Below are positions 1,229-22,980 of a stretch of 64,000 nucleotides of DNA, piece by piece. The position numbers and the translations under genes were made by a program. The DNA comes from a virus. Taxonomy: Duplodnaviria > Caudoviricetes. Under the pieces are notes generated by a model that saw nothing but the letters and a program-made list of their open reading frames with translations, had not been told where the DNA came from and ran no database searches. Numbering within the stretch: position 1 is the first letter of the stretch; the number at the start of each line of letters is the position of its first letter. Location: positions 32,001 through 96,000 of IMG/VR virus record IMGVR_UViG_3300016725_000002. One strand, 5' to 3'.

Positions 1229-2059
1229 CTATTTAAATTGAGTCTGAAAAGTTGTAAATAATGTATTAGCTGCATCAATAGTTGTAGTAGCATCCAAATT
1301 AGTTAAGAAAGTCTTATATAATGAATAATATTTATTATATATTGATAATTTATCTAATGCTTCTAAATACAAAGAAAGAGTATCTAACAAAGCAGCATCA
1401 TTTTTATTAACTATTTCTAAGTATTTATCTTCCCTATTTTCTTCAGTAACAATGAAACCTGCGGCAGCAAGCTTATTGTTATTTATTACGAAATCAAAAA
1501 AGTAATAAGACATAGAATCATCTAGTCTAGTTTTTGTTAACTCAAGAGCTTTATTCTTTAAATATACTTTTAATACCTGCAAATCTGTTAAATTTTCATC
1601 ACTAATAATAAGAATATCATCCTGTGATAATATAGCGGATCCGCTATCTTTTAAGGTAACTTTACTAACTGCCATCTCCATATCTTTAGTAGATAAATAA
1701 TCGAACATTGCTTTAGTTACCATAACAAATAAATTAGGGTTCCAAGTTTCGATACTTGATACAGATCTAACGCCAATAATATATCTAACTGAATTTCTAT
1801 CGCTAATAGGAGCTAAATAAATTGTATATAATGTATTTGCACCATCCACAGTATATGTATAATCTGTCACATTTTCAAGTATCTTTGAAGTATCAGTAAC
1901 TTCAACCTTACCGGAAATTATTAAATCTGTAAGAACACAATAAATAGACTTAGTAACTTCAATGTCATTTTTACCTAAAGTATATGTATCTTCTTTAGTT
2001 GAAAGAGATTCAATTATATTTTTAGAATCAGTTGTCGCGTAAGTAGCAATGTATTTCAT
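1229..2059 (-). CDS. rSAM-cluster-associated protein; C-terminal half similar to 40348..40929
   Basis: 276 aa, GGAG RBS; shared pattern K.KA......R......F(F/Y)D(F/Y)...L.L(Y/F)(L/I)(E/D)A...Y..Y..F. Confidence 0.7.
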   Translation of the reverse strand: MKYIATYATTDSKNIIESLSTKEDTYTLGKNDIEVTKSIYCVLTDLIISGKVEVTDTSKILENVTDYTYTVDGANTLYTIYLAPISDRNSVRYIIGVRSVSSIETWNPNLFVMVTKAMFDYLSTKDMEMAVSKVTLKDSGSAILSQDDILIISDENLTDLQVLKVYLKNKALELTKTRLDDSMSYYFFDFVINNNKLAAAGFIVTEENREDKYLEIVNKNDAALLDTLSLYLEALDKLSIYNKYYSLYKTFLTNLDATTTIDAANTLFTTFQTQFK

Positions 2060-2071
2060 GGTTTGTTCTCC

Positions 2072-3142
2072 TTAGTTCTGGTTTAATTTGTGTTGTAAAA
2101 AATGATTAACTTGTTTAGAATACTTTAGGTAAAAGTTAGAAGCATATTCATAACAAATTTTGTATAATTCACAAATACAATTAATAGGTTTACTCTCTTT
2201 AAAGTTTCCATATTCAAGTTGTGAATAGTTGCAGCCCATATTACATTCAAGTTTTATTGAACATGTTGCACAATGTTTATTATAAACTGGATGAAACATA
2301 CTAGATATTTTCTCAATTAATGAACCGTTGATTTTTTGTTCTTTATAGTTACCTAGTTTAAATACATTATTAGAAGCAAATCTAGCACAAGGAAAAATAT
2401 CTCCATTCTCTTGAATACTTACTCCATGAGTACCAGAAAAACAAGTGAATGGACGTTTACCTTTAGTATTACCCATAATGCAATCTAATAAATATAATGA
2501 ATATATACCGGGAATGGGTACGTTGCCAGTTTTATCTACATACTTTTCAATAATTTCATTTATAATATCTAACTGCTGTTTAAATATTAAAATATCTCCA
2601 AATTGCCAAATATTATCTCTTACTAATGAAAAATCAGGATATAATATTCCTTTTTCTAGGAAGAACTCAAAATTTTTACTAAATGATGAAATGTTGAGTG
2701 GAGAAAGCATACACTTAACTCCACGCATTTTCATTGTTTCTAATAATGAAAGAGGAAATACATCAATTGTTTTATTTACTCTTGTATTAGCATAAGGTCC
2801 ATCATAACTAATACCATATGAAATATTTAACTCGTCCAATTCCTGTATATATTTAGGAAGTAAATAACCATTAGTTTGAACATGATGTGGAAAAGATGGA
2901 GTATATTTTGTTATACTTTTAATTACCTTCATATTCAAAAGTGGTTCTCCTCCAAAGAAAGCAATTTCTGTTTCCTTTGAAAAAGAATTATATTTTCCAA
3001 GTTCAGCGCGTATTTCAGGTAAATAATTTAATGCTTGTTTAAAGCTTTTTAAAGTTAAAGATTTGGTTTTAGTTTGATTTATATAGCAGTAAGTACAATT
3101 TAAGTTACAGGCATTTGTAACTATTGTTTCTAACTGAAACAT
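2072..3142 (-). CDS. Radical SAM/SPASM domain protein (peptide-maturase-like)
   Basis: CNLNCTYC, FFGGEPLL, QTNG; SPASM-type cysteines CFSG...FPCARF...CATCSIKLECNMGC...CIC. Confidence 0.92.
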   Translation of the reverse strand: MFQLETIVTNACNLNCTYCYINQTKTKSLTLKSFKQALNYLPEIRAELGKYNSFSKETEIAFFGGEPLLNMKVIKSITKYTPSFPHHVQTNGYLLPKYIQELDELNISYGISYDGPYANTRVNKTIDVFPLSLLETMKMRGVKCMLSPLNISSFSKNFEFFLEKGILYPDFSLVRDNIWQFGDILIFKQQLDIINEIIEKYVDKTGNVPIPGIYSLYLLDCIMGNTKGKRPFTCFSGTHGVSIQENGDIFPCARFASNNVFKLGNYKEQKINGSLIEKISSMFHPVYNKHCATCSIKLECNMGCNYSQLEYGNFKESKPINCICELYKICYEYASNFYLKYSKQVNHFLQHKLNQN

Positions 3143-3441
3143 TACTTTTTAAGTTTTTCTTGAACATTCTTGATAATTGAATCAACGGATTCAGCAACAT
3201 CTTCGGGGATTTCAACATTGTCATCACCAAATTTTGCAGCCTGGGCTTCATTAAAAGCATTGACATAATCTGCATTTCGGGAAAGCATTAAATTAAGTAC
3301 ACCAGCCATAGCGGCACTACCAAAAGAATCATAGTTGCTTAATTCCTGAATATTTTTACCAAGATTTTCAATCAATTTATTAAATTTCTTAGTAGCTAAA
3401 ATACGTTCTTTTTCTTCTATTGAAACAATCTTCTTTTCCAT
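3142..3441 (-). CDS. Hypothetical protein
   Basis: 99 aa ORF, GGAG RBS, coupled to the downstream rSAM gene. Confidence 0.65.
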   Translation of the reverse strand: MEKKIVSIEEKERILATKKFNKLIENLGKNIQELSNYDSFGSAAMAGVLNLMLSRNADYVNAFNEAQAAKFGDDNVEIPEDVAESVDSIIKNVQEKLKK

Positions 3442-3452
3442 TTGCGTTCTCC

Positions 3453-4277
3453 TTAGAAATGGTCGAATAATTTTAAAGTAACCATATCTTCAACGACATT
3501 CTCACTGCCAGGTATACCGTAATTTTTCTTAGTAAATAGAGATCTATTGCATTTTTTACATATTGCACACGCATGCTCACATATTGAGATACGATAGCAT
3601 TTATATAAATATAAACTGGTTTTAGTTAATTGTTGTTTAACTTTTGACAGTTCTTCTCTTCCAATTTCATCCATTAAACCTTGATAATCATAGTTAACTC
3701 TAATCTTCTTTTTATTATTATGTATTAGATTCTTATCTTTATTAGGATAAAATAGTTCTAACATTGTTACTATTTCTTCTAAAGAAGTTTTAACTGTTTT
3801 GGTTGTAATTGTAAAACTCAAACCGAATGGTATATCTAATGAGTTAAGCAAATTTAAGTTATCTTGAACTATTGTAGAATTTGGAGTACGAACATTTTGA
3901 TATGAACCATCATAACTAACATCTAACGATACATGAACTGAATTACTAGTTAATATTTTCTTTAAATTAGAAAGATTCTTTTTAATTAGTGTTCCATTGG
4001 AAATGATGTTTATTGCAATATTCTTTCCAAGAGTTTGTGCAGTTTTTTCACAAAAATTATAAATATACATTATCTTTTTCATTTCCAATAAAGGTTCACC
4101 ACCCATTAAACATAATGTACTATTATTTGATTTCTCAACTTCTATAAGAGTATTTAAATACTTATCAATTTCTTCATAGTTAATGATACGTTTTTCACGT
4201 TCTTTACCTTGTTGCTCATAACAATAAGGACAATGAAGATTACATTGATTAGTTAAATAAAGTACATTAACATTCAT
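3453..4277 (-). CDS. Radical SAM protein
   Basis: CNLHCPYCYE, MGGEPLL, ISNGT, SYDG; C-terminal CEHACAICKKC. Confidence 0.9.
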   Translation of the reverse strand: MNVNVLYLTNQCNLHCPYCYEQQGKEREKRIINYEEIDKYLNTLIEVEKSNNSTLCLMGGEPLLEMKKIMYIYNFCEKTAQTLGKNIAINIISNGTLIKKNLSNLKKILTSNSVHVSLDVSYDGSYQNVRTPNSTIVQDNLNLLNSLDIPFGLSFTITTKTVKTSLEEIVTMLELFYPNKDKNLIHNNKKKIRVNYDYQGLMDEIGREELSKVKQQLTKTSLYLYKCYRISICEHACAICKKCNRSLFTKKNYGIPGSENVVEDMVTLKLFDHF

Positions 4278-4596
4278 TCTTATGCTCTAATGAATGTAAT
4301 CTTAAACTTAATGCTTGAATAGATAATTGTTGAAATTTTATTAAATCTACAAGTATAGGAATTAATTGCGTTGAGTCAATAAAATATTCAGATGAAGTTA
4401 GCTGTTTTAACATTTTAAATGATGAAAATTCATGTTCAAATTCCTTTAAATCAAATGTAATTGTTTTCTGCCCAAACTGATCTACATGTAATACACTAGA
4501 TAAATTTAACACTTTATTCATTAATTCTGTTATTTGAAGTTTATCATTAATTTCTTTTAATTTTTGTAAATTATTTAAATCTGATAACTTATCCAT
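4267..4596 (-). CDS. Small protein resembling the C-terminal part of a tail-fibre intramolecular chaperone (peptidase S74-like)
   Basis: IDSTQLIPILVDLIKFQQLSIQALSLRLHSLE resembles the S74 chaperone end motif plus coiled coil. Confidence 0.5.
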   Translation of the reverse strand: MDKLSDLNNLQKLKEINDKLQITELMNKVLNLSSVLHVDQFGQKTITFDLKEFEHEFSSFKMLKQLTSSEYFIDSTQLIPILVDLIKFQQLSIQALSLRLHSLEHKNEC

Positions 4597-5404
4597 CTTT
4601 ACCTCCTAAAATACGAATGATTTCATCATTTGAATCTAAGTATCTATTAGTTAGTTTATTAACTACTAGATCACTAAATCTATAATATGAACCATCTTTT
4701 ACCTTAGCATTATTAATATAATTAATACGCTTCTTATAGAAGTAACATTCATGAAATAACCGTGGATGTGGATCAAAGTATGCGGAATGATAATATACAT
4801 ATTCATCAAATTGTTCAAATAGATTATTTACATGTTGTTCCTGTTTAACAAAATAGGGTTTATTAAAACTAGCTGCATAATTATTTGCATTTAAGTTATC
4901 AATATCACCGGGACAATTTAAGTATAAAGCTTCTTTAACATTAGATAATGGTTTAAAAAATTCAAATGCAAACTTCATTATATACTTTTCATCACAGTAT
5001 GCAAATGGCATTTCAGTAAAATATGTTACATTGTATTTACTTTTATCTAACATAACATGTGTAGAATCAGTTAACTCTGTAACTATTGTTATATGTTTCG
5101 CTCTTAATAAACCATGGATGTGTGTAATAGTTCCCCAATCTAATATTACAACTTCATCAAACTCTTGTTTTATTAGTTCAATCTTTGGTACTATTTTTAT
5201 TTTATCACTTAGATCATATGGATAGTTATAACGGTTATTAATCAAATATAATAAATGTTGCTTATAATCTTGTATACTATAATGAGGAATATCTAGTAAG
5301 ACTAAGTAAACAGGAGAAGTTAAATTAGCTACCATGAAATATTCTAAAGCATCAATAACACTACCTGTTACTTTATTATGGGTCATTTGAAAGATTACGT
5401 TCAT
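4589..5404 (-). CDS. Putative glycosyltransferase-like (GT-B) protein
   Basis: FDEYVYY...FDPHPRLFHECYFYKKRINY parallels IDPFPNALLEALQCGKQII of 39477..40364. Confidence 0.45.
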   Translation of the reverse strand: MNVIFQMTHNKVTGSVIDALEYFMVANLTSPVYLVLLDIPHYSIQDYKQHLLYLINNRYNYPYDLSDKIKIVPKIELIKQEFDEVVILDWGTITHIHGLLRAKHITIVTELTDSTHVMLDKSKYNVTYFTEMPFAYCDEKYIMKFAFEFFKPLSNVKEALYLNCPGDIDNLNANNYAASFNKPYFVKQEQHVNNLFEQFDEYVYYHSAYFDPHPRLFHECYFYKKRINYINNAKVKDGSYYRFSDLVVNKLTNRYLDSNDEIIRILGGKDG

Positions 5405-5604
5405 TTCTTTTTATCTAAATATTCCTGATATTCTTGTTTAAATGTAGATAATAAACATCGCCTCGCTATTTCTGCATGAGTTATATTTTTATCAGATTGC
5501 TCACTTTCATCAAGTGCTTTACGTCTTAAAAATGTAATAAAGGTTTTCGGTAGTTTTAAATTATATGTAGCTGTATCTTGTAAGTAACTATCATATTTAC
5601 CCAT
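5401..5604 (-). CDS. Ribbon-helix-helix-like DNA-binding protein
   Basis: 67 aa; TYNLKLP strand, helix, then ITHAEIARRCL helix. Confidence 0.5.
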   Translation of the reverse strand: MGKYDSYLQDTATYNLKLPKTFITFLRRKALDESEQSDKNITHAEIARRCLLSTFKQEYQEYLDKKK

Positions 5605-5615
5605 GTTTCTTCTCC

Positions 5616-6530
5616 TCAGATATTGAGTATTTTACAATAGAATGAATAGTTTTGACCTGAGTATAAATCCATAAATACATTAGAACTAATACAATTCAAA
5701 CACATTTCAGTATCAGTATTAGGAAAGATATTTGTATTTTGAAGAATATTTTTAAGATTAACTTCTGTTAATTCAATTTTACTACTTTGCATTGAAACAC
5801 AACATCTATGAATTGAATTAGTGGGAATATTAATCATTGTCTTTGTCATAATCTGTTGGCACTTTAATTGTAAGTTATTTACAAACTGTTTTTTATTTAA
5901 AAGTTTAATTATAAATTTAAGCCTTAACTTGATAAAATCAAACACATTGTTCCTATCTTTAATTATATTATATATTGTTATAAAATCTTGTTCATTCATA
6001 AAGTTAAGATCAGTCCTTCTAGGTTGAAGGAAATGAGGCAAGAACATACAATTGGGATTGTTATCCAACAATGTGGCAAATTGTTGGATATTTTGTTTAT
6101 GTACAACAACGGTATATTGAATAGGAATACTAGTATCATTGTAATATTCAAAAGATTTATTCTCAATTTCAGGCATAACATGATAAAGTATATATCGTAT
6201 TTTATCTTCATATTGTTTATGAAATCCATTCTTCATGAACAAACCATTAGTAGTAATACTATATTTATCAGATACATTTGAGTTAAAGATTAAGTCTAAT
6301 ATATTTGAATCAATTAATCCTATTTCACCACCTTCCAATAAAATTTCAGTATTTTTACGATATTCTTGTAAGTTATTTAACATTGTTATTACAGAAAGTA
6401 ATTGCTCTTCAGTACAAGTAACAGGATTAACAATTGAAGGATGATCGCAGTAAGTACAACGCCATTGGCATTTTTGGGTTAAAGATATCCAAAGGTAATT
6501 ACTAAATGAAAAACAATTGGAATAATCCAT
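5616..6530 (-). CDS. Radical SAM protein, short family with C-terminal Cys (twitch-like) domain; close paralog of 17453..18412
   Basis: WISLTQKCQWRCTYCDHP, EGGEIGL, TTNG; C...HRCC...CLNC. Confidence 0.9.
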   Translation of the reverse strand: MDYSNCFSFSNYLWISLTQKCQWRCTYCDHPSIVNPVTCTEEQLLSVITMLNNLQEYRKNTEILLEGGEIGLIDSNILDLIFNSNVSDKYSITTNGLFMKNGFHKQYEDKIRYILYHVMPEIENKSFEYYNDTSIPIQYTVVVHKQNIQQFATLLDNNPNCMFLPHFLQPRRTDLNFMNEQDFITIYNIIKDRNNVFDFIKLRLKFIIKLLNKKQFVNNLQLKCQQIMTKTMINIPTNSIHRCCVSMQSSKIELTEVNLKNILQNTNIFPNTDTEMCLNCISSNVFMDLYSGQNYSFYCKILNI

Positions 6531-7322
6531 TTAACCTCCAAATAACTGCTTTAATTTTAATCGTTGCTGCAAATATTGAGAATGCAATGCGTATAATCCA
6601 AAACAATTTCTAAAACAATAAGAACAATTTTCAGTATTCTTAGCAAATATACTAGTTGTTAATACTGCTACTAGATTTTCATAAGTTAATGGAATTTGAA
6701 TGTAAGAATTATAACAACTACACATTGCAATTGTATGTCTAGTTAAATTAATTGTTATATATGGTGTATAATTTCTACATACCATTCTATCTTTTTCAAT
6801 TATAGAAATATCTGGTTTAACCAGATTGGGATAAGGCAAGTCAAGCATTGAATAATCAAACTGTTTTGTTAATGGATCGCCTTCAAGATATATTGCATCA
6901 TATACTTCTGAAGTATATCTATTTGAATCTTGAATACTAGAAAATATTGTCCATATCTTAGCCTTTCCTGCATATTGTTTAGCTAAATATTCATCTTCTG
7001 GTATTGCAATATGTAATGAAGTTGGTAAATCAATAGAATATTTTAATATATCACCAGTTGTGGATAACATAGATATAGGTAATTTATCAAGAATATATTG
7101 TAATTTGTTTTCAGTACATAATCCAGGTTCACCAATACCGCCGAGTATAAATTCATGAGGAATATTTAATTTATCGTGTATTGTTAATAACAGTTGAATT
7201 GATTCATCTAATTTATTATCTAATTCGATTTGTCGTCTATCATCATAATTAGGTAAATTACAGTAGTCACAAAAACAGAATTTATTACACTTCTCACATA
7301 TAGTTATTTCAAATGTAATCAT
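6531..7322 (-). CDS. Divergent radical SAM protein, short family, atypical Cys motif
   Basis: CEKCNKFCFCDYC, GGIGEPGL; C-terminal C...CSC...CSYCFRNC. Confidence 0.75.
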   Translation of the reverse strand: MITFEITICEKCNKFCFCDYCNLPNYDDRRQIELDNKLDESIQLLLTIHDKLNIPHEFILGGIGEPGLCTENKLQYILDKLPISMLSTTGDILKYSIDLPTSLHIAIPEDEYLAKQYAGKAKIWTIFSSIQDSNRYTSEVYDAIYLEGDPLTKQFDYSMLDLPYPNLVKPDISIIEKDRMVCRNYTPYITINLTRHTIAMCSCYNSYIQIPLTYENLVAVLTTSIFAKNTENCSYCFRNCFGLYALHSQYLQQRLKLKQLFGG

Positions 7323-8191
7323 GCATCATCTCCATAATTGAGTTGATAATAATAATGACATCCTTCACAATACTTTGGTAATTCATCTAAATTGAATAAT
7401 TTATTTGTATATAAAGATATTAAGTTGTGCTGATTAATTTCTTGTGTAATACTTTTATTAAAGAGATTACCACATTGATATATAACTTTACGCTCTACAT
7501 CAATAGCACAAGTATAATAAGAATTAGCACATTGTAATCTTTGTTCATTATATTTTTGAGGATTTAAAATACAATCTAGCACTTCATTACACTTTAATTG
7601 ATACATATGATTTGGATACATATTAATAAAGGAACGTATATCCTGTACTAAATCAGTTACTTTTATTGAATCTACTTTATTATTAACTATTTTGAACTCT
7701 GAAAATGTACTTAGATAATTAGTTTCATCAGGATGATGTAATAAATATGCTAATATATTCTTGGTTAATATAACCAAATTACGCTGGTTCTTCACATAAT
7801 CCATATTATAAAACTTCAACAATTCTGTTTCAGTTGCATCATAAATTAGATGTTCGTTATACCAAAGTTTTGGTCTATCACATATAGTTATTCTTTTTCT
7901 AACTAATCCATTAGATAAGATTTGAAATCTAGTTACATTAGGATAGCTATAAACTAGATTCATTGCATCAACTAAATTGGTTGCTAACCCAGGCTCACCA
8001 CCTGAAAATTCAACAAACATAGGTATATGTAATTTAGCGTATGTTGTTAACACTTGTTCTATTAACTTAATATCAATTGTATAACTCTTATTATTTATAT
8101 GAACATTGTTTTCATATACTGGATAGTTACAATATGAACAATGCTGATTACAATTATGCGAAAGAATAAACTCAAGAAAGATTGGTTTCAT
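7319..8191 (-). CDS. Radical SAM protein, short family (start reassigned to MKPIFLEF)
   Basis: CNQHCSYC, SGGEPGL, LSNG; ATG at 8191 has an AAGGA RBS and avoids a long overlap. Confidence 0.88.
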   Translation of the reverse strand: MKPIFLEFILSHNCNQHCSYCNYPVYENNVHINNKSYTIDIKLIEQVLTTYAKLHIPMFVEFSGGEPGLATNLVDAMNLVYSYPNVTRFQILSNGLVRKRITICDRPKLWYNEHLIYDATETELLKFYNMDYVKNQRNLVILTKNILAYLLHHPDETNYLSTFSEFKIVNNKVDSIKVTDLVQDIRSFINMYPNHMYQLKCNEVLDCILNPQKYNEQRLQCANSYYTCAIDVERKVIYQCGNLFNKSITQEINQHNLISLYTNKLFNLDELPKYCEGCHYYYQLNYGDDA

Positions 8192-12268: not shown

Positions 12269-12277
12269 AATTCTCCT

Positions 12278-15558: not shown

Positions 15559-16386
15559 TTATTCTTCAACATCATAATAATAACATTTTTCACATAGGGA
15601 ACTAAAATTAAATAACTTTTTATTCAGTAATGCAATTAGATTATCTGAATTAATCTCATAGGATTTACTTAAAATAGGATTACCACCACATTGTAAAATT
15701 GAGTTTGAATCTAAATCCAAGGTTGCACTAGTATGAGATAGACAACAACTTCTTTTATTTTCGATATGTAAATTTGAATCTCTATAGGAAGCTAACTGTT
15801 TTAATTCCCTAATTAAACCATATTTTATATAAAAGGAATATAGAGAATCATAATAAGTATTAAGATCAATAAAATTATTATTCTTTTTATTTAAAATTTT
15901 AAATTCAGAAAATTCTAGTAATTCAGTTGCTAATTCAGTATTATTTAATAATGATTCTGTGGTATGTTTTGTCATTATTACTATATTTTTATTTGTTTTT
16001 GATGAAACAAAAGGCATATCATAAAATTTAATAATTTTATTTTTATAAATTTCAAGTATTAAATGTTCTTCATACCGTATATCTGAAGTAAAATCAAAAT
16101 TCTGCCGAACCAATCCATTTGAAACAATATTTAAATCATTTTTATTTTTCAAGTTTGGTAGAGATAAAAAGTAATCAACTAATTGAGGTAAATTATTACA
16201 TAACCCAGGTTCACCACCACTTAAACACACTGAAATATCTTTAAATATGATAAAAAATTTCATTATATATTTGATATAATCTAAATCTACTTCATAAGAA
16301 TTTTTATTGTGATGATGTAAGTAACAATAATAACAATTTTTATTACAGTTATTAGATAGCATAAATTCTAAGTGAAATTTATGCAT
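15559..16386 (-). CDS. Radical SAM protein, short family
   Basis: CNKNCYYC, SGGEPGL, VSNG; C-terminal CC...C...CEKCYYY. Confidence 0.9.
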   Translation of the reverse strand: MHKFHLEFMLSNNCNKNCYYCYLHHHNKNSYEVDLDYIKYIMKFFIIFKDISVCLSGGEPGLCNNLPQLVDYFLSLPNLKNKNDLNIVSNGLVRQNFDFTSDIRYEEHLILEIYKNKIIKFYDMPFVSSKTNKNIVIMTKHTTESLLNNTELATELLEFSEFKILNKKNNNFIDLNTYYDSLYSFYIKYGLIRELKQLASYRDSNLHIENKRSCCLSHTSATLDLDSNSILQCGGNPILSKSYEINSDNLIALLNKKLFNFSSLCEKCYYYDVEE

Positions 16387-17472
16387 TTATTTTTCTCGTA
16401 CAATGTCCAGTGTAAAACAATGAAAACCTCCACCAAATAAACGTCTATGTCTATGTTGAACAGGAATTGGTTCAAATCCTTCATTACTTAACGTATCACA
16501 AAGTTCAGGGAATAAAGAGTTGCACATAATACGTTTTCCATCAATGCTTAATACATTTATATCAATGAACGGGCCAGCTAAACGTAAATCATCAAAACCA
16601 TATGCAGGAAAATGATTATCATTTGATACAGGAGCATACACTAATTTCCAATCTTTTAAGAAATCAGGAAGAATATCACGAATAAATGTATTTCGTACTA
16701 ATAAAGTACCTTCACATAAAGGAACAATATAACTGTCTAAATGATTATCCGTTATGGAACGTACAATATGAAAATGGTATTCAGGAAATTGACGAATCAA
16801 CCACTCTGCACCTAGTCTATGATTATGTGTACTAACATTAACAATAATATCTTTTCCAAATCTAACTAGCTGTGCAGCATCAATCATCATTTCATGACCT
16901 AAACCAAAATTCAATTCTATTGGATCTAATTTTTGTGTATTTTCAATTGGAAATGTTTCAGCAATACTTTCAGTATCGAATGATGAATCTAACATCATAG
17001 GTTTAGGCATTTCAAACCACTGACAATCACCACGAGAAAAGAAATCATAGAAAACAGGTTTAAGTAAATCATTTTCAAAATATCTATATCTAACTTGTGG
17101 TGCTAATTCAACAATACGATTACCTAGAATAACTACTTGGTCACGAATATTAAGTGCAGGAATCATTGTGCTTTTATAATAAGGTGTTTTATATGGAACA
17201 GGAGCAGATAAAGTTTTAGGACGATGCACTATAATACCAAGTGATTCTAATACATTTTTCATATTTTCAACATCTTCAGTTAATTCTTGTAAATATTGTT
17301 TCTTTACTTGAAATTTATTTTCATTATCTCGTCTACTATATACTTCAGAATAATGTTCAGCATAAAATAATTTAAATGATAGTTCTAAAGCAGGTAATTG
17401 AAAGTTTAATGGTGAACCTAAAACTACTTCTTTTAAAGGCGACCATTCATTGTTAGAATAAACCGTATTCAT
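16387..17472 (-). CDS. Amidinotransferase (glycine / inosamine-phosphate amidinotransferase family)
   Basis: NEWSPLKEVVLG, RDQVVILG, RYFE, DAA, HLD, GGGFHCFTLD (catalytic Asp/His/Cys of the pentein fold). Confidence 0.9.
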   Translation of the reverse strand: MNTVYSNNEWSPLKEVVLGSPLNFQLPALELSFKLFYAEHYSEVYSRRDNENKFQVKKQYLQELTEDVENMKNVLESLGIIVHRPKTLSAPVPYKTPYYKSTMIPALNIRDQVVILGNRIVELAPQVRYRYFENDLLKPVFYDFFSRGDCQWFEMPKPMMLDSSFDTESIAETFPIENTQKLDPIELNFGLGHEMMIDAAQLVRFGKDIIVNVSTHNHRLGAEWLIRQFPEYHFHIVRSITDNHLDSYIVPLCEGTLLVRNTFIRDILPDFLKDWKLVYAPVSNDNHFPAYGFDDLRLAGPFIDINVLSIDGKRIMCNSLFPELCDTLSNEGFEPIPVQHRHRRLFGGGFHCFTLDIVREK

Positions 17473-18412
17473 TAATCCCTCTCCTTCTCATATCAAACAA
17501 CACACGGCGATAATTCAATTCATTATTAGGGTTCATGTAATGAGAGTTATATAACCAAACAAAGTTTGCTATACAGTTGTTGCAAGTTTCATCATGAAAA
17601 GGATAAATAGGTTCATTATATAATACTTTTTTAAGATTCTCATAGGTTAACTCAACAGAGTTAGTATTCATACTAATGCAACATCTATGAATCTTTCGTA
17701 GAGGTAAATTAATAATAATTTTATTGTAAATATTACAACATGCAAATCTAAAGGTTCGCAGCGTATCAGGTTTATCTGTATATTCAATTATTTCTTTAAC
17801 TCGGTTTTTCATATGATCTTCAATATTTGGTTTGTCACACATAATATCATAAATTTGTTGAAAATCTTCTTTACTCATAAAGTCTAAGCCGGGAACTCTA
17901 GGTTGTAAGAAATGAGGTAAAAATGTTTTATCTAAATTAGCTGAAAGAAAAGAATCAAGATATTTTATATTATGTTTATGAACTACCATTGTATAAAGTA
18001 CATGAATAGATGGGTCAAAAGTATAATCTGGGAAAGTTGTTTCTTCATTTAATTCGGTAACTGTATGATAAAGTATATGATGGATCTTATCCTTATATCT
18101 ATCATGATAATTACGCTGCATAAACAGTCCATTAGTTGTAATTGTATATGTTTCACTTAAATTAGCATTAAATACTTCATCCAAATAATCTTGAGAAAGT
18201 AATCCAATCTCTCCACCCTCAAGAGATACTTCAATATTAGCGTTACCTTTAATTTCATTAAACATTTCTACAAATTCACGATAATAACTTAAATCAACGG
18301 TAGTAGGATTAACAATTGAAGGATGGTCACAATACCAACAACGCCATTGACATTTTTGAGTTAAAGATATCCATACCCATCTATCAAAATCAACATAATC
18401 TCGCTTTTTCAT
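17453..18412 (-). CDS. Radical SAM protein, short family; close paralog of 5616..6530
   Basis: WISLTQKCQWRCWYCDHP, EGGEIGL, TTNG, HRCC, CNNC. Confidence 0.9.
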   Translation of the reverse strand: MKKRDYVDFDRWVWISLTQKCQWRCWYCDHPSIVNPTTVDLSYYREFVEMFNEIKGNANIEVSLEGGEIGLLSQDYLDEVFNANLSETYTITTNGLFMQRNYHDRYKDKIHHILYHTVTELNEETTFPDYTFDPSIHVLYTMVVHKHNIKYLDSFLSANLDKTFLPHFLQPRVPGLDFMSKEDFQQIYDIMCDKPNIEDHMKNRVKEIIEYTDKPDTLRTFRFACCNIYNKIIINLPLRKIHRCCISMNTNSVELTYENLKKVLYNEPIYPFHDETCNNCIANFVWLYNSHYMNPNNELNYRRVLFDMRRRGINEYGLF

Positions 18413-18421
18413 ATTGCTCCT

Positions 18422-19381
18422 TTATAATACCTTTCTACTCAATAGAAAGTCTTCTTCTGGTGGAAAACAGAAAGGAAGTTTACATATTTGATTTTTAAAA
18501 TCATAATATGGATTAGTTAATACATTGCCTAATGGTTTTTGATTGTAAAAATCTTCATCGTAACGACAACAAGGATAAATATTAAAGTTATCTAATACTG
18601 AAATATATTTATTTCCTGCTTCACAAATTAACATCTTATATCGTGTATAGTCATTAATATTAGAATCATTAAATTGCAAATCATATTTATCATGTATTTC
18701 ACTTGTTCCATTATTAAATGTATACTTAAATAACAAATCTTTTCCACTTATTTTTCTAGCTTTGTTAAATAACTCAGACATGTACCATGAGTATTCGGTT
18801 TCACCGGGTAAAATGCTATATATTGTTCTAGGTAATATTCTAAACTCAGGTATATTAACTGAATTGAAATATTCAAAGGCTTTAAATGATAATTCATCAT
18901 CTTCGCCAGTAAACATACATTTAACTTCTACAGTAGCACCAGCATTTAAGAGTATCGTAATCTTTTGGTCTAATTGTTTGATATTAGTAATATGTGGATG
19001 AAAACTAGTTAATACACGCAATTTGCTATTACAACTAGCTATTAACTCTTGAAGATAAGATATATCTCGATATAAATTAGTATAGAGTTTAACATTGTAT
19101 TTATAATTATTTATTGCATGTAAAAAATGAGGATGAGTTAATGGTTCACCACCATAAATAGCTATCCAAGATTTATCCGTTGAGATATTATTGAAATAAG
19201 TTGTTGCAACTGTTAACTGATCTTTAGTTGAAAATTCATTTGTATTCTTACAACTATAAATACAATATCTACAGTTAAATGTACAATTTTTAGTTATTCC
19301 CCAACCAATATATCGGTCACAGGGTTCAATCATATAGTTATCTTGGTATTCAATTCTACTTATATCTCGCAATCTTTTCAT
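18422..19381 (-). CDS. Radical SAM protein with twitch-like domain
   Basis: CTFNCRYC, YGGEPLTHP, YTN, SFHP; CEAG...YPCC...CKLPFC. Confidence 0.9.
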   Translation of the reverse strand: MKRLRDISRIEYQDNYMIEPCDRYIGWGITKNCTFNCRYCIYSCKNTNEFSTKDQLTVATTYFNNISTDKSWIAIYGGEPLTHPHFLHAINNYKYNVKLYTNLYRDISYLQELIASCNSKLRVLTSFHPHITNIKQLDQKITILLNAGATVEVKCMFTGEDDELSFKAFEYFNSVNIPEFRILPRTIYSILPGETEYSWYMSELFNKARKISGKDLLFKYTFNNGTSEIHDKYDLQFNDSNINDYTRYKMLICEAGNKYISVLDNFNIYPCCRYDEDFYNQKPLGNVLTNPYYDFKNQICKLPFCFPPEEDFLLSRKVL

Positions 19382-20250
19382 AAAGTTTTTGCGTTCCTTA
19401 TTTTAGTATTTAAAATATTAGTTAAGTTCTTTTCAGCACACCATGCAAAACAGGATTTACAGTATTCATTGTCACCAAACATATTAGAATGGGGTGTTAA
19501 TATTTTAATTAAATTATCTTCAGTTAAATCAATTGAATTATTTGATCTGCCAGAACATTGAGCTATTTTATTTTCAGGTAACACAATACTAACTGTTTGA
19601 TTTAAGGTGGCGCATGCTTTTCTACTCATATCTAAAGATGGTATAGCTGCTATTTTTCGTTCTATATCTTCAATACATGCAGCAGTAATATTCTGGTATT
19701 GTTTAGCACATTCTAACAAATAAGTATAACAAGTTTTAAGCTGCATTTCTGTTATGTCTAAAGATAATGGAAAGTCAAATCCTAAATAATCAATAGGCAT
19801 ATGTTTATTTTTCTGTAGAAATTCTTCAATATAGTATGCGCAATTAAACACCTTTCCATAACTTACATTAGCAACACATTCATTTACTCCATCATGCATA
19901 TGACAGAAGATGTGACTACTTTCATATCGTTTATGATAATTACGTTTTAGATATTCACCATTTGTTGAAATTATAGGTTTGATATTCCAGTTACTCAAAT
20001 AATAAAAAACCATATGAAGAAGTCTTTCGTCTAATAAACCAATCTCTCCACCAACCAAACATACAGAGCATTTTTCAATTAGTTGAACAGTATTACAAAT
20101 ATACGGCAAATGCTGATGGAGTTGTTGTTCTGTAACATGGTTATATGAAGGGAATGTTCCGAATGTACAATGAGTACATTTCCAATTACATTGCGTTGTT
20201 AACACTAATTCAATCTGCTGGTCAATGTTTGTGTATATCACCAAAACCAC
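19378..20250 (-). CDS. Radical SAM protein, short family
   Basis: CNWKCTHC, VGGEIGL, STNG; C...C...CKSCFAWC. Confidence 0.88.
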   Translation of the reverse strand: MVLVIYTNIDQQIELVLTTQCNWKCTHCTFGTFPSYNHVTEQQLHQHLPYICNTVQLIEKCSVCLVGGEIGLLDERLLHMVFYYLSNWNIKPIISTNGEYLKRNYHKRYESSHIFCHMHDGVNECVANVSYGKVFNCAYYIEEFLQKNKHMPIDYLGFDFPLSLDITEMQLKTCYTYLLECAKQYQNITAACIEDIERKIAAIPSLDMSRKACATLNQTVSIVLPENKIAQCSGRSNNSIDLTEDNLIKILTPHSNMFGDNEYCKSCFAWCAEKNLTNILNTKIRNAKTL

Positions 20251-21089
20251 CCATAGTCCCTGTTTATGAAACTTTTGTTTAGGCGTGCATTGACAACTTT
20301 GTCTGTTTTGTGTGCGTCCATATCATAATAATAACAAGCATCGCACATCTTATTATATTTAAATAATGTTCCTCTTAATAAGCTACGCAGGTTTTCTGCG
20401 GTAACGGCATAACTCTCTGATTCTTTAAAAAAGGAACATTGATTAATTTGTTTATTATACAGTGTAATAGATGGCATATGTGAATATGTTGAACATAATA
20501 TTCTATTGGTATCACATGCATGTTGTAATACAGATACTGCATATTTATCTTGTCTATCAGAATAAAATTTAATATATTTATTTAACTCTTTAACTTGAAC
20601 AGTATAATTTAGTAACATCTTATACACAGTATTTTGTGGTAGATACTTCATTAATTCAGGGGAAAGACTATTTAACACATTATCAGTCAATACTAAAATA
20701 TTAGCACATTTTTCTGTTACAAAAGGAAGTTGTGTATTATACTGAATAGCACCATCTACTATATCTTGAATAAGATGTTCACAATATAGTCTAAATTTAA
20801 CACAAGATACTAAATCATAATAGTGATCTCTAAATAAACCATTAGACATAACTTGAAAATAATTCACATATTTATTATCTATTACTTTACGCAATAATTG
20901 GGGCATATTTGAAATTAAACCTGTTTCTCCACCAGAAATTTCAAGATATAGCGGAACAGCTAAAGAGTTAAGTATATATTCAACATAATCAACATCTATT
21001 TCAATTAAATCTGTACTATTTTTTATAAAGTCACAGTAATAACAATTGCTGTTACACTTATTATGGGTTATTAAGCTTAGGAAAAACAT
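20238..21089 (-). CDS. Radical SAM protein, short family
   Basis: CNSNCYYC, SGGETGL, MSNG; C...C...CDACYYY. Confidence 0.88.
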   Translation of the reverse strand: MFFLSLITHNKCNSNCYYCDFIKNSTDLIEIDVDYVEYILNSLAVPLYLEISGGETGLISNMPQLLRKVIDNKYVNYFQVMSNGLFRDHYYDLVSCVKFRLYCEHLIQDIVDGAIQYNTQLPFVTEKCANILVLTDNVLNSLSPELMKYLPQNTVYKMLLNYTVQVKELNKYIKFYSDRQDKYAVSVLQHACDTNRILCSTYSHMPSITLYNKQINQCSFFKESESYAVTAENLRSLLRGTLFKYNKMCDACYYYDMDAHKTDKVVNARLNKSFINRDYGWFW

Positions 21090-22048
21090 AAGGAATGTTG
21101 GATAAACTTTATTGTATTTTCATCTAATTCATTATAATTCGGCAAGTATAAAATATCAGGAGTATATTTTGCATGATATACTATACAACTTTTAAAGAAA
21201 AAGTCTCCTTCAAAATCAAAAGAGGTAATAGTTTTATAATTATCATCGGAGGTTAAGTCTACTTTTCGCTTAACAAATTTGTTAAATTTAGCAATAGTAG
21301 CAGAAGCATTACATGCAATACATAATCTACTTGGTGAGGTTTGATCTTCCGCATGAATAACATTAAAAGGTAAGGATTCATATACACGTTGACGTTCTGC
21401 AATAATAGATGAATAATCATAAGTAATAAGTCGTTCTAACGCTAGTGTATTCATTTGTAAATTTAAACCTAACGCAAATGATTTATTACCTCTATGGAAA
21501 TTACCTTGAAACTGACATTCCATGAATCTTTCTAATAATGCAGGGTTGTTTATTATGCCACAACCACCTTCACCTAAATCAATAGTTTTCTTTTCAGAAA
21601 AACTTAAACATGAAATATCACCAATACCAAATGTATTAAAATCAGGCATAGTTGAACCAAGTGAATTACATGAATCTTCAATTAATACAATATTTCGCGC
21701 ATCACATAGTTCTCGGATTCGTAATATATCTCTATCAAGAATACCTAAATGGTAAACATAAATGATAGCACTAACTGCATAATTATCTACTAATTCTTTC
21801 ACACTGTCATAAGACATACATAAAGTATTAGGATTCACATCGGCAACCGCAATATTCAGTTTCATAAACCTAGCTACATTAAACCAAGCATGATAGCCAT
21901 AATTCGGGCCAATAACTAAACTACCTAATGGGGCATCACAACTATATAATGCACACATTAATGCAGATGTACCACTATTAGTAAAGACAACCGGAGATGT
22001 TGTCTTTGTTGCAGTATTGATTATAGATGCAGCTTGTTGTTCTAGCAC
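21077..22048 (-). CDS. DegT/DnrJ/EryC1/StrS family PLP-dependent aminotransferase
   Basis: FTNSGTSAL, LIEDSCNSLGS, SFSEKKTIDLGEGG (PLP lysine motif); GTG start with GGAGG RBS. Confidence 0.9.
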   Translation of the reverse strand: MLEQQAASIINTATKTTSPVVFTNSGTSALMCALYSCDAPLGSLVIGPNYGYHAWFNVARFMKLNIAVADVNPNTLCMSYDSVKELVDNYAVSAIIYVYHLGILDRDILRIRELCDARNIVLIEDSCNSLGSTMPDFNTFGIGDISCLSFSEKKTIDLGEGGCGIINNPALLERFMECQFQGNFHRGNKSFALGLNLQMNTLALERLITYDYSSIIAERQRVYESLPFNVIHAEDQTSPSRLCIACNASATIAKFNKFVKRKVDLTSDDNYKTITSFDFEGDFFFKSCIVYHAKYTPDILYLPNYNELDENTIKFIQHSLCFS

Positions 22049-22923
22049 AATAACCTCCTAAGTTGTTGTTTAACTAACAGTAACTTTGTAATCTCATGTT
22101 TATCAAAGCTAAAACAATTTCTTACACATTTTGAACAATTATTATTTACTGTATCGTATACTGAAAAATTAGTCAAAAGTTTTACCAAGTTCTCTTTCGT
22201 TAAGGGTAAAGTAATATGTCTATTTTTAACACTACAGAGGCATAAACAATTATGAGTAAAATCAACTGTTATAATACGTCCACTTTTAGCACAACCCTCT
22301 TGGTACTTTAATAATTCTTGATATGGTAGAATATTATTTGGGCAGTTATCATATAGTGTAGGGTGTTGTTGTTTAATATACTGTCTACTAGCAATAATAG
22401 TGTTATACTTTTCTTCCGTTAACTCTTCATCTAAAGGTAGTTCAAAGTCTAAGTATTTTAGTTGATATTGTTGTGTAATTGTATCTATTGCTTCTGTAGA
22501 ATAATGTGTAATTACTGCACCTGGTATTACATCAACGGTTGATTGAGTTGTTGAGTCGATATTTAAATCTGGTGTAATATGATAATGAACCTGTCCAATA
22601 TACGAAGAGAATTTAGTATGATAATTATGTTTAATGAACTCTCCATTAGTTGATATAGTAATATTCTGCTGATTTAAAGTAGTGAAGAATTGATTAAGCT
22701 TATCATATGATAACAAACCTATTTCTCCACCTTGAGCCAACATATGAATACGAAAATGTTGAGAGATAGTATTTATAAGATTGGATACCATTTTAATATT
22801 CTGTATAGTTAACTCATTAAATTCAATCTCGTCATTTAGTCGATAACGAGAAGCATAATTACAATAGCTACAATCCCAATTACATCTATCTATTAGTTGA
22901 AACTCCATATATAGATCAGTCAT
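22042..22923 (-). CDS. Radical SAM protein, short family; first gene of the operon
   Basis: CNWDCSYC, QGGEIGL, STNG; C...CLC...CSKCVRNC. Confidence 0.88.
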   Translation of the reverse strand: MTDLYMEFQLIDRCNWDCSYCNYASRYRLNDEIEFNELTIQNIKMVSNLINTISQHFRIHMLAQGGEIGLLSYDKLNQFFTTLNQQNITISTNGEFIKHNYHTKFSSYIGQVHYHITPDLNIDSTTQSTVDVIPGAVITHYSTEAIDTITQQYQLKYLDFELPLDEELTEEKYNTIIASRQYIKQQHPTLYDNCPNNILPYQELLKYQEGCAKSGRIITVDFTHNCLCLCSVKNRHITLPLTKENLVKLLTNFSVYDTVNNNCSKCVRNCFSFDKHEITKLLLVKQQLRRLLC

Positions 22924-22955
22924 ATTTCTCCCTGTAAACCAGTTTGTTGGTTTAG

Positions 22956-22964: not shown

Positions 22965-22980
22965 TTTATAGCATAAATGC

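Follow-up and report, generated by a model that had tools for sequence, protein, structure and literature searches.

A phage operon with sixteen radical SAM enzymes, an aminotransferase and an amidinotransferase: a possible oxygen-free route to sugar-like tailoring

Introduction

What might a bacteriophage make with sixteen radical S-adenosylmethionine (SAM) enzymes encoded in one operon? This question is raised by a block of minus-strand genes at positions 1229–22923 of a 64,000-nucleotide stretch of viral DNA, which covers bases 32001–96000 of the 161,660-bp linear IMG/VR virus record IMGVR_UViG_3300016725_000002 (CheckV completeness 59%). We refer to this whole stretch as the window. A preliminary description, made from the letters of the window, had drawn attention to the radical SAM genes and their neighbors and had proposed a pathway of secondary-metabolite scale run by a phage of an anaerobe. 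Following up on it, we favor, at a probability of about one half, an oxygen-free tailoring route for a sugar-like compound (a hexose, a nucleoside-sugar or a cyclitol), with the target left open. The evidence includes the recurrent coupling of one family of short radical SAM enzymes to an aminotransferase and an amidinotransferase.

Results

A tightly packed operon of 23 genes

The block extends over 21.7 kb of the minus strand and holds 23 genes, namely 22 open reading frames (ORFs) of at least 80 amino acids and one ORF of 67 amino acids (5401–5604). Adjacent genes overlap by 1–20 nt or are separated by gaps of at most 12 nt. An apparent gap at 5405–5615 is occupied by the 67-residue gene, the product of which is 84% identical in the related contig L097. 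The ORF listing, running from 22923 down to 1229, agrees with the tightly packed minus-strand operon described earlier, and so does its end. The terminator reported there is a perfect 10-bp hairpin with a T-run, which was missed by our terminator scan and identified by eye:

1183–1214, minus strand: intrinsic terminator ending the operon; perfect 10-bp stem GGCTAGTGGA / TCCACTAGCC followed by T6.

The operon is best described in two parts. Cassette A (5616–22923, 17.3 kb) comprises 14 radical SAM genes, a DegT-type aminotransferase gene and an amidinotransferase gene, and module B (1229–5604) comprises seven genes. In the following, genes are also named by their lower coordinate.

Of the sixteen radical SAM proteins, ten are short paralogs of the twitch type, four are long, and two are the SPASM/twitch enzymes that were earlier called maturase-like. 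The canonical CX3CX2C motif is present in 15 of them (starts 2072, 3453, 5616, 7319, 8172, 9768, 10580, 12278, 13972, 15559, 17453, 18422, 19378, 20238 and 22042). The sixteenth, 6531–7322, displays the variant CxxCxxxCxCxxC, which is kept in its L087 ortholog; this protein has no Pfam match and is a BLAST paralog of 22042 (2e-12). The previous count of sixteen Cys motifs is thereby confirmed as 15 canonical motifs and one conserved variant. The Pfam Radical_SAM model (PF04055, gathering cut-off 29.5 bits) is exceeded in eight of the sixteen (2072, 3453, 8172, 9768, 10580, 12278, 13972 and 15559), scores 17–28 bits in seven and is silent for 6531. Across the whole record this profile marks 18 places, which together with 6531 makes 19 Radical_SAM-like genes in a record that is 59% complete.

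The operon genes keep every catalytic motif intact and show no internal stops. DNA repeats between paralogs reach at most 86% identity over at most 163 nt, indicating that the copies are old and no assembly duplicates; near-identical DNA patches between paralogs were considered and rejected, the best being 86% over 74 nt. Pfam and NCBIfam scans of the operon products returned no oxygenase families. A crude Kyte–Doolittle scan of the same products returned no hydrophobic segments, as the sole segment just above 1.6 belongs to the N-terminal extension of 7319, which is itself doubtful.

The short radical SAM family

The ten short proteins (263–325 residues, mutual identity 17–47%) are old paralogs. 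They have in common the cluster motif, a GGE(P/I)GL SAM-binding motif, a TNG motif and four invariant C-terminal Cys residues, the last of which bear out the C-terminal Cys domains noted before. Among 126 sequences of the family, three of the C-terminal Cys are invariant and the fourth is present in at least 90%, with a spacing of C-x18-C-x32-C-x2-C, from which binding of an auxiliary Fe–S cluster is predicted. The ten genes, all in cassette A, are as follows:

22042–22923, minus strand: short twitch-type radical SAM enzyme that opens cassette A; CX3CX2C at residue 14, C-terminal four-Cys motif.
20238–21089, minus strand: short twitch-type radical SAM enzyme of the subgroup that adjoins or is fused to DegT elsewhere; 30% identical homolog in L003 directly upstream of DegT.
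19378–20250, minus strand: short twitch-type radical SAM enzyme; CX3CX2C and C-terminal Cys.
18422–19381, minus strand: short radical SAM enzyme, the most divergent paralog; BLAST-related to the 2072 SPASM enzyme too.
17453–18412, minus strand: short twitch-type radical SAM enzyme, directly upstream of the amidinotransferase in four contigs (window, L087, L003, L004); modeled.
15559–16386, minus strand: short twitch-type radical SAM enzyme; Pfam 39 bits.
9768–10595, minus strand: short twitch-type radical SAM enzyme; 97% identical protein on an ENA contig.
7319–8188, minus strand: short twitch-type radical SAM enzyme; with the TTG start of the listing, at 8296, the gene would run 125 nt into the previous one, and an ATG at about 8188 agrees better with the alignment of the paralogs.
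6531–7322, minus strand: short paralog with the variant motif; 42% identical ortholog in L087.
5616–6530, minus strand: short twitch-type radical SAM enzyme, last gene of cassette A; 67% identical ortholog in L096.

A profile of the ten paralogs, run against 1.84 billion cluster representatives, matched 14,420 proteins at E ≤ 0.001, of which 390 reach 1e-10 and 48 reach 1e-30. The matches are mostly full-length (260–320 residues). The short-family profile also matches the peptide epimerase YydG/EpeE at 1e-9. No NCBIfam model comes near its cut-off for these proteins; the family is unnamed and outside any NCBIfam model. The choice of search proved decisive here: a word-based homolog search with one short enzyme returned the 97% identical twin only, and the others were found by the exhaustive profile search. 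Pattern scans of IMG/VR with one long enzyme, the long-enzyme alignment and a pair of short enzymes returned no relatives, the alignment of all ten paralogs being too diverse for use.

The AlphaFold model of 17453–18412, built from 126 sequences, is of high quality, with a predicted local distance difference test (pLDDT) of 94.4 and a predicted template modeling score (pTM) of 0.91. It displays a partial TIM-barrel radical SAM fold with Z scores of 13–16 to many radical SAM enzymes. Foldseek places BlsE first (1.9e-7, template modeling score (TM) 0.55), then the twitch dehydrogenase SpeY (3.5e-6), EpeE, CteB, SkfB, AbmM and anSME. With VIA-align, BlsE again leads (Z 16.5 over 272 residues, 13–14% identity), closely followed by SkfB (16.1), anSME (15.8) and ChlB (15.6), with BtrN at 14.3; viperins lie within one Z unit of BlsE, and SuiB is among the peptide-enzyme matches. 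As modeled, the fold belongs to the twitch/SPASM subgroup, and the structure does not reveal the substrate class. An attempt to separate sugar-acting from peptide-acting enzymes on structural grounds failed for this model, the Z scores being tied.

Aminotransferase and amidinotransferase

Two genes of cassette A encode non-radical enzymes:

21077–22048, minus strand: DegT/DnrJ/EryC1/StrS pyridoxal phosphate (PLP)-dependent aminotransferase, short form of 323 residues; Pfam PF01041 at 105 bits against a cut-off of 19.8.
16387–17472, minus strand: L-arginine-type amidinotransferase; full-length PDB matches, PHROG 25854 at 7e-42.

The aminotransferase covers profile positions 42–225 of 360 only. 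Of its 48 PDB matches at E ≤ 0.001, nearly all bear names of sugar or cyclitol aminotransferases or dehydrases from this family; they include a BtrR-type glutamine:2-deoxy-scyllo-inosose aminotransferase (4e-12), NtdA and Kdo8N transaminase. The context of the PLP lysine, SFSEKK, aligns with SFHPRK, and the aspartate context IEDS with IEDA.

For the amidinotransferase, residues 4–359 match HsvA (2e-42), human AGAT (2e-40), SxtG (2e-39) and StrB1 (1e-36). At the catalytic Cys motif, GGGFHCFT stands opposite GGSFHCAT in HsvA and GGGFHCWT in AGAT. By these alignments, 16387–17472 is a true amidinotransferase, its acceptor specificity aside. Together with a structural model of a glycosyltransferase-like protein in module B (below), the Pfam and PDB matches substantiate the three kinds of accessory gene that the preliminary description had listed beside the radical SAM enzymes.

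Adjacencies and fusions in related phages

Orthologs in almost the window's order are found on the overlapping contigs L087 (guanine-plus-cytosine (GC) content 27.5%) and L096, which share 92% nucleotide identity over 2.9 kb. Identities amount to 58% for 22042, 53% for DegT, 45% for both 20238 and 19378, 68% for 18422, 75% for 17453, 80% for the amidinotransferase, 42% for 6531, 40% for 8172, 35% for 9768, 30% for 10580 and 67% for 5616. Since each paralog has its own ortholog in the related contigs, the paralogs are differentiated and maintained. The L087/L096 cluster is followed by lysozyme, tail tube and tail terminator genes. L087 additionally encodes a 385-residue protein whose SGGIDS motif we take for that of a PP-loop ATP pyrophosphatase; the protein has no family match.

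The L087 version of cassette A also contains, at L087:11331–14110, two ABC permease genes and a gene for a polar-amino-acid binding protein with a signal peptide; no ATPase gene was recognized in this stretch. These importer parts possibly serve a phage-driven supply of arginine or glutamine.

Further combinations recur elsewhere. L003 and L004 (GC content 22%) display the gene order radical SAM, DegT, ATP-grasp, radical SAM, amidinotransferase, and L095 encodes three short radical SAM enzymes, a 52% identical amidinotransferase, ATP sulfurylase and adenosine 5'-phosphosulfate (APS) kinase. Direct adjacency of a radical SAM gene to DegT is found in the window, L087, L088 and L003, and adjacency to the amidinotransferase in the window, L087, L003, L004 and L095. 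Moreover, two proteins from separate 50%-identity clusters, P0083 (641 residues) and P0086, join a short-family radical SAM enzyme to DegT in one chain (1.8e-45 and 3.2e-14), the DegT part of P0083 being 34% identical to that of the window. Another protein, P0012, is a methyltransferase fused to a short-family enzyme, and three others are tandems of two radical SAM enzymes. P0083 lies on a 316-kb contig together with three more radical SAM genes, a NodU/TobZ-type carbamoyltransferase gene, a weak Glycos_transf_1 match, a nucleoside diphosphate (NDP)-sugar epimerase/dehydratase gene and a nucleoside deoxyribosyltransferase-like gene.

From these fusions and recurrent adjacencies, the short radical SAM enzymes are functionally tied to DegT and the amidinotransferase. 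With hundreds of metagenomic clusters (390 at E ≤ 1e-10), this is a family of some size that is repeatedly linked to both enzymes, even by fusion.

Cassette A and module B as separable units

Comparison with L097 (GC content 29%) offers a view of how the operon is put together. L097 holds module B in the order of the window, with identities of 84% for the 67-residue gene, 76% for 4589, 61% for 4267, 62% for 3453, 43% for 3142, 60% for 2072 and 49% for 1229, and continues, as the window does, with the next gene (46%) and a PcfJ-like gene (63%). In L097, the leader is joined straight to module B, whereas in the window the 17.3 kb of cassette A lie between leader and module B. L087/L096, in turn, have a version of cassette A that is not followed by module B. 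Because each part occurs apart from the other in related phages, the two are separable units under one leader, and the operon is composite. Both this composite structure and the fusions of short radical SAM enzymes to DegT are new here and go beyond the preliminary description. The cassette states, i.e., one leader that is followed by 17 kb of enzyme genes in one phage and not in another, offer natural comparisons of a nearly isogenic kind.

The long radical SAM enzymes

The four long proteins (528–565 residues) are mutual paralogs at 25–34% identity, with the radical SAM core in their second half:

13972–15558, minus strand: long radical SAM enzyme, 528 residues, N-terminal domain of about 250 residues plus core; Pfam Radical_SAM 50 bits over residues 255–412, weak NCBIfam matches to BchE and PhpK.
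12278–13975, minus strand: long radical SAM enzyme, 565 residues; Pfam match, weak NCBIfam matches.
10580–12268, minus strand: long radical SAM enzyme, 562 residues; 30% identical ortholog in L096.
8172–9767, minus strand: long radical SAM enzyme, 531 residues, modeled; 40% identical orthologs.

The label of class B-like enzymes given to these four before found no firm support. The B12-binding domain PF02310 is absent from the genome scan even at E ≤ 1. NCBIfam matches of the core to PhpK, BchE, HpnJ, AprD4 and C-methyltransferase models for peptides that are made by ribosomes and modified post-translationally (RiPPs) all remain far below their cut-offs, the best being PhpK at 37–53 bits (cut-off 600) and BchE at 49 bits (cut-off 481). 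The model of 8172–9767 is poor (pLDDT about 60), with beta-alpha-beta elements at residues 100–195. With this poor model (pLDDT 60), Foldseek lists AprD4 first (1.3e-8), then OxsB, TsrM and MgmA, all at TM ≤ 0.34, and VIA-align does not separate these four from HemN, HydG and MiaB. A class B-like architecture is thus possible, as far as such a model can suggest. The long enzymes are a rare family: among 5.8 billion proteins, three close homologs (about 40% identity) were found, with PF04055 alone and no B12 domain on record, and tblastn of 13972–15558 against 50,697 phage records gave no match.

Module B

The seven genes of module B are listed from its upstream end:

5401–5604, minus strand: conserved 67-residue protein, first gene of module B; 84% identical in L097, no Pfam match.
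4589–5404, minus strand: compact protein with a glycosyltransferase B (GT-B)-like fold; ESM Atlas model of pTM 0.72, C-terminus 30% identical to gp077 of Campylobacter phage CP220.
4267–4596, minus strand: conserved helical protein of 109 residues; 61% identical in L097, no family match.
3453–4277, minus strand: radical SAM enzyme with a C-terminal CX5CX3CX2CX2C motif; Pfam 54.9 bits, 26% identical to CP220 gp099 and 62% in L097.
3142–3441, minus strand: acidic, Cys-free protein of 99 residues; 43% identical in L097, no family match.
2072–3142, minus strand: radical SAM/SPASM enzyme of PapB/anSME-like architecture; Pfam Radical_SAM 52.6 bits, SPASM PF13186 24.6 bits against a cut-off of 21.5.
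1229–2059, minus strand: acidic, Thr-rich protein of 276 residues that starts with MKY; its gene is the last one ahead of the terminator; PHROG 25260 at 4e-9.

The ESM Atlas model of 4589–5404 matches GT1/GT4 clusters at a query TM of 0.65–0.72, and its nearest clusters are phage-only. Searches of Pfam, NCBIfam, PHROG and PDB sequences returned no match for this protein. The 2072–3142 product aligns over its full length with the NCBIfam PapB model (104.7 bits, cut-off 340) and is 31% identical to CP220 gp023. Homologs of the 276-residue protein (about 50% identity) always follow a SPASM gene, and we take it as a candidate substrate or virion protein.

The maturase-like assignment of 2072 and 3453 stands as far as domain architecture is concerned. 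Pfam and NCBIfam scans revealed no RiPP recognition element (RRE), and no precursor peptide was recognized; each of the small ORFs (3142, 4267 and 5401) lacks a family match and contains 0 or 1 Cys. Two further readings of these small proteins were considered. A ribbon-helix-helix protein in 5401–5604 is a guess from sequence with no family match, and a Peptidase S74 chaperone-like reading of 4267–4596 was rejected, no family match being found even at E ≤ 1.

Leader and promoter

The region between the operon and the upstream unit contains the following elements:

22954–22983, minus strand: candidate promoter; sigma-70-like match of 9/12, with ACAGTTTA at 22958–22965, 42 nt before the first start codon.
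22988–23015, minus strand: intrinsic terminator of the upstream (tail-fibre chaperone) unit; 12-bp stem and T-run, inside a conserved 200-nt leader.

The promoter-like site at 22983–22954 was found where a candidate promoter had been described; as sigma-70-like matches are not above chance in this AT-rich DNA, it is a candidate only. The octamer ACAGTTTA within it has 16 copies in the genome, eight of which are intergenic and all on the coding strand, intergenic DNA being 4% of the genome. Copies listed in the window are at 22965, 23009, 23108, 29039, 38578 and 54494. Two more copies lie 36–41 nt before start codons, an exact ACAGTTTA before 38537 and a variant GCAGTTTA before 60195. The octamer may be a phage-specific promoter element; we regard it as a lead, with no bearing on timing.

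The leader itself (22924–23130, minus strand) is about 84% identical to L097:1–198 and holds three hairpins. Both phages have in common a perfectly kept stretch of about 40 nt with the hairpin CCCCACGTTGTTTGGCTCCTTCAACGTGGG, the position of the terminator and a promoter-like box CAGTTTATACTAAACCA. Compared with proteins that are 43–84% identical between these two phages, the perfect conservation of this stretch suggests a functional RNA or regulatory element.

Phage and host context

The block is DNA of a giant phage and no bacterial island. Nearly all genes of the window are on the minus strand, including those for the major head protein (PHROG 4e-60), a 954-residue tail sheath, tail-fibre-like proteins and HNH endonucleases, so that capsid, sheath and tail genes share the operon's strand in one 161.7-kb record. 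With virion genes on both sides, the possibility of a bacterial or misassembled origin, raised along with the initial proposal, was resolved in favor of the phage. The capsid protein is 33–35% identical to those of jumbo myophages including PaBG, phiRSL1 and Vibrio phage GR11A. At the nucleotide level, neither the operon nor the structural region had a megablast match in 50,697 deposited phage records; the protein of the last operon gene (1229–2059) recurs letter for letter on a 233-kb contig. The surroundings of the operon include:

23123–23488: tail-fibre assembly chaperone-like gene, upstream of the operon; PHROG 2e-10, Pfam 26.5 bits against a cut-off of 26.6.
24301–26046, minus strand: complete methyl-accepting chemotaxis protein (MCP; 4HB_MCP sensor and MCPsignal), two units upstream of the operon among tail-fibre-like genes.
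798–1166, minus strand: protein of 122 residues with an MKY N-terminus and an internal duplication with paired Cys motifs (…TCKCSS… / …TCRCLKG…), just past the operon terminator.
39477–42472, minus strand: second radical SAM locus; radical SAM/SPASM gene 41369–42472 (367 residues, PHROG 1802 at 3e-32), then small proteins.
L091:7445–8143 (G000 29444–30142): further short radical SAM-like gene, 232 residues, Pfam 17.6 bits, about 1.9 kb before the window start and operon-downstream.

The chaperone-like gene lies directly upstream of the operon, as first described, and a gene for a baseplate spike OB-domain protein lies downstream. The L091 gene sits between a 448-residue protein gene and genes leading to the baseplate spike (Phage_base_V). 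The 798–1166 protein is 46% identical to one in the same place in L097. The second radical SAM locus includes a weak GT-B-like gene (Glyco_trans_1_4 at 3e-5, under its cut-off); a module common to this locus (39.5–42.5 kb) and the operon was rejected, since the similarity is generic to radical SAM enzymes at 26–28% identity.

The best clue to the host is the phage-borne chemotaxis receptor, in itself an unusual auxiliary gene. The MCP is 55% identical over its whole length to one from Desulfovibrio desulfuricans, and the best 80 loci among 569 candidate stretches are almost all from Desulfovibrionaceae and related sulfate reducers. By this indirect evidence, the host is probably a strict anaerobe, likely a member of the Desulfovibrionaceae or another sulfate reducer of gut or sediment, in line with the anaerobe suggested at the outset, with the caveat that the phage GC content of 27% is far from that of sulfate-reducer hosts. 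An anaerobic host fits an operon of oxygen-labile enzymes.

The window has a GC content of about 27%, and the operon, at 23–30%, is slightly below the remaining window. Two islands of about 50% GC lie at 34000–38000 and 44000–46000 of the window, in the region of the major head protein and of a tail-fibre-like gene (44107–45420); rRNA and tRNA were ruled out as their source, as no rRNA, tRNA or Rfam matches were found in the window. Two large HNH endonuclease genes (29067–30770 and 55126–56601, minus strand) are placed inside the structural gene array.

Discussion

A proposed route

DegT enzymes aminate keto-sugars or inososes. Twitch-type radical SAM enzymes are known to precede DegT-type aminotransferases, as with BtrN and then BtrR/S, or BlsE and then BlsH, and amination precedes amidino transfer in the pair StsC and StrB1. 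Given these precedents and the fusions and adjacencies above, a sugar-like route is the simplest reading of the operon. In this scheme, a twitch-type radical SAM enzyme would abstract a hydrogen atom and give rise to a keto (or dehydrated keto) intermediate, which DegT would convert to an amine; the amidinotransferase would then turn the amine into a guanidino group, with arginine as the donor. The remaining short paralogs and the four long enzymes might perform further radical edits elsewhere on the compound, such as epimerization, deoxygenation, C-methylation or rearrangement. Module B, with its GT-B-like transferase, two SPASM/twitch enzymes and small proteins, would serve transfer to, or maturation of, an acceptor, possibly a virion (tail) component such as the 276-residue product of the last gene. 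Gene content, enzyme families, modularity and the coupling of short radical SAM enzymes to DegT and the amidinotransferase are observed; that the substrate resembles a sugar, in what order the steps occur and which acceptor is used are parts that we infer. Sugar genes in the contexts of relatives, i.e., the P0083 contig, cyanophage S-SCSM2R and the CP220 module, lend support to the sugar-like nature of the substrate. Glycan machinery dependent on a lipid carrier was not found in the searches run (Glycos_transf_1 and Glycos_transf_2 are absent from the record, and no operon product matches such a family), which, together with the lack of hydrophobic segments, fits a cytoplasmic pathway. A virion component as the target is a reasonable guess from the location between tail-fibre chaperone and baseplate genes, as in CP220, and late timing of the operon is a conjecture as well.

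Several points weigh against this route. The 161 kb of the record contain no NDP-sugar synthesis gene, Glycos_transf_1 or Glycos_transf_2, and the operon offers a single, weakly supported glycosyltransferase-like gene. Substrate, product and expression are predictions from sequence. The leading structural match, BlsE (Z 16.5), is tied with SkfB, anSME and ChlB, leaving sugar-acting and peptide-acting enzymes unseparated. With one DegT for ten short radical SAM enzymes, most steps have no explanation. HsvA is reported to act on polyamines, and AGAT acts on glycine, so the acceptor of the amidino group need not be a sugar. Finally, the ATP-grasp, SGGIDS protein, ABC transporter and 3'-phosphoadenosine 5'-phosphosulfate (PAPS) genes of relatives would fit a small-molecule or peptide product equally well.

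Weighing of alternatives

One alternative is a free small molecule: a diffusible polycationic guanidino compound (aminoglycoside-, peptidyl-nucleoside- or amidino-polyamine-like), directed at the host or competitors and unattached to the virion. Aminoglycosides and guanidine toxins typically bear guanidino, carbamoyl and sulfate groups, and relatives of cassette A carry an ATP-grasp gene (L003), the SGGIDS protein and importer parts (L087), ATP sulfurylase and APS kinase (L095) and a carbamoyltransferase; the nearest solved amidinotransferases (HsvA, SxtG, StrB1) are likewise enzymes of natural products or polyamines. AprD4, an aminoglycoside enzyme, tops the Foldseek list for a long enzyme, although the model behind this match is poor (pLDDT 60, TM 0.34), and VIA-align does not set the match apart. 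As the operon lacks an exporter or self-resistance gene, and its module, like that of CP220, is surrounded by genes for tail and baseplate, we regard a released compound as rather unlikely. Slightly less plausible still is a RiPP-like modification, in which the radical SAM enzymes would cross-link, epimerize or C-methylate the side chains or backbone of a phage protein (the 276-residue product or a tail fibre) and the aminotransferase and amidinotransferase would edit its residues. The PapB/anSME-like architecture of 2072–3142, the profile match to YydG/EpeE (1e-9), the model matches to SkfB, anSME, ChlB, CteB and SuiB about as good as that to BlsE, the fixed order of three small or uncharacterized module B proteins and the second radical SAM/SPASM gene (41369–42472) all speak for such a role. 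However, an RRE or leader-type precursor was not recognized, two of the small proteins have 0 and 1 Cys, and cassette A occurs without module B in related phages. DegT enzymes, moreover, are known for sugar or cyclitol substrates, and none of the 48 PDB titles names a peptide substrate.

Hypermodification of DNA, with an amino- or guanidino-bearing (glycosyl) base adduct for evasion of restriction, appears improbable. Phage thymidine hypermodification does use PLP enzymes and a radical SAM isomerase, and DNA glucosyltransferases of T4 adopt the GT-B fold; close to the fusion P0083 there is a nucleoside deoxyribosyltransferase-like gene, and an arginine-supplying importer, as in the relative L087, would suit a stoichiometric modification. 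Yet the operon sits in the tail module, away from replication genes, and neither a thymidylate-synthase-like hydroxymethylase nor tRNA-guanine transglycosylase (TGT)/DpdA was found in the 161.7 kb, a weak negative given that the record is 59% complete. The DNA of CP220 is fully modified, with 7-amido-7-deazaguanine, but this was assigned to 7-deazaguanine genes and DpdA3 and not to the radical SAM module (10.1101/2023.04.13.536721). An artefact, i.e., a misassembled bacterial island or decaying genes, is very hard to reconcile with our data. The slightly low GC content of the operon (23–30%) might hint at it; against it stand the phage structural genes on both flanks of the same strand and record, the identical last protein on the 233-kb contig, the orthologous clusters next to tail tube, tail terminator and lysozyme genes elsewhere, the intact motifs without internal stops and the limited repeats (at most 86% identity over at most 163 nt).

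A bolder form of the sugar-like route is put forward tentatively, as we consider it doubtful at present. In a phage of strict anaerobes, ten functionally diverged twitch-type and four long radical SAM enzymes, both of families not described before, might edit one sugar or cyclitol scaffold one after another in a largely radical, oxygen-free pathway of natural-product scale, leading to a polycationic guanidino glycoside that is mounted on the tail or released, with the 17-kb cassette moving between phages as a unit behind the conserved leader. If the product decorates the virion, phage glycobiology would extend to anaerobes and radical chemistry, and a tail-mounted product would represent a new kind of virion decoration affecting adsorption. 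If the compound is free, phages would join the producers of aminoglycoside-like metabolites.

Comparison with known systems

Aminoglycoside biosynthesis (streptidine and 2-deoxystreptamine) relies on StsC/BtrR aminotransferases, the amidinotransferase StrB1, the twitch dehydrogenase BtrN and class-B-type radical SAM enzymes such as GenK and AprD4. The operon shares with it a DegT aminotransferase, a StrB1-family amidinotransferase and small twitch-type radical SAM enzymes. As identity to the characterized enzymes is low, and no NCBIfam equivalog reaches its cut-off, it is only the chemical logic that is common to both. Among the families searched, no 2-deoxy-scyllo-inosose or inositol-phosphate synthase, kinase, GT1 or GT2 member was found in the operon.

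In blasticidin S biosynthesis, BlsE is a twitch radical SAM enzyme that acts on cytosylglucuronic acid and BlsH is the PLP aminotransferase that follows. BlsE is the best structural match of the modeled short enzyme, and the same coupling of radical SAM enzyme and then DegT is implied by the fusions. In contrast, identity to BlsE is 13–14%, the match is statistically tied with peptide SPASM enzymes, and a cytosine-glucuronate synthase is lacking in the window.

Cyanophage S-SCSM2R (PQ898602) combines a DegT-like aminotransferase, a radical SAM enzyme and an amidinotransferase (27% identical to 16387) in one cluster, described by its authors as "antibiotic synthesis genes" of unclear role (PMC12801897). 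It differs in having five glycosyltransferases, several 2-oxoglutarate (2OG)-Fe(II) oxygenases and a single radical SAM enzyme, whereas the operon has 16 radical SAM enzymes and no oxygenase family in the scans of its products. With oxygenases in place of radical SAM enzymes, the S-SCSM2R cluster looks by analogy like an aerobic counterpart.

The closest known system is the radical SAM/amidinotransferase module of the Campylobacter phages CP220 and CPt10, of which the operon is a large version. This interchangeable module of five radical SAM enzymes and an amidinotransferase was left without a function when described, and the 11–12 radical SAM enzymes per phage were called "highly unusual" (Timms et al. 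2010, PMC2853527); we found no later literature that assigns it one. The link to CP220-like phages drawn in the preliminary description turns out to be real homology: the best cultured-phage matches of the amidinotransferase and the SPASM enzyme are in CP220-group phages, with 33% identity between 16387 and gp086, 31% between 2072 and gp023, 26% between 3453 and gp099, and 30% between the C-terminus of 4589 and gp077. CP220, a T4-like Firehammervirus, likewise carries its radical SAM cluster with one amidinotransferase and glycosyltransferase-like genes near baseplate spike genes. There, gp086 stands in a run of five radical SAM genes, two nucleotide-diphospho-sugar-transferase-like genes and a PAP2 phosphatase gene, which follows the genes for a gp5-like baseplate lysozyme and a PAAR protein at a distance of a few genes. 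The description as an interchangeable module matches the cassette behavior of the operon.

The two systems also differ. Similarity of the short paralogs to CP220 proteins is confined to the N-terminal cluster region, the CP220 annotation has no DegT beside its module, and the phage backbone is another one, with a PaBG/phiRSL1-like capsid and a probable Desulfovibrionaceae host. CP220 has five radical SAM enzymes in the module and 11 in the genome. Here, a single operon has 16, and the record, 59% complete, has 19 Radical_SAM-like genes. Cultured phages seldom carry radical SAM enzymes, and these numbers exceed even the 11–12 of CP220/CPt10 (PMC2853527). Our proposal of oxygen-free amination and guanidinylation thus offers a testable function for a kind of module that has been open since 2010. 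What is particular to the present operon is its all-radical make-up, the rare family of long enzymes, the probable sulfate-reducer host and the cassette structure.

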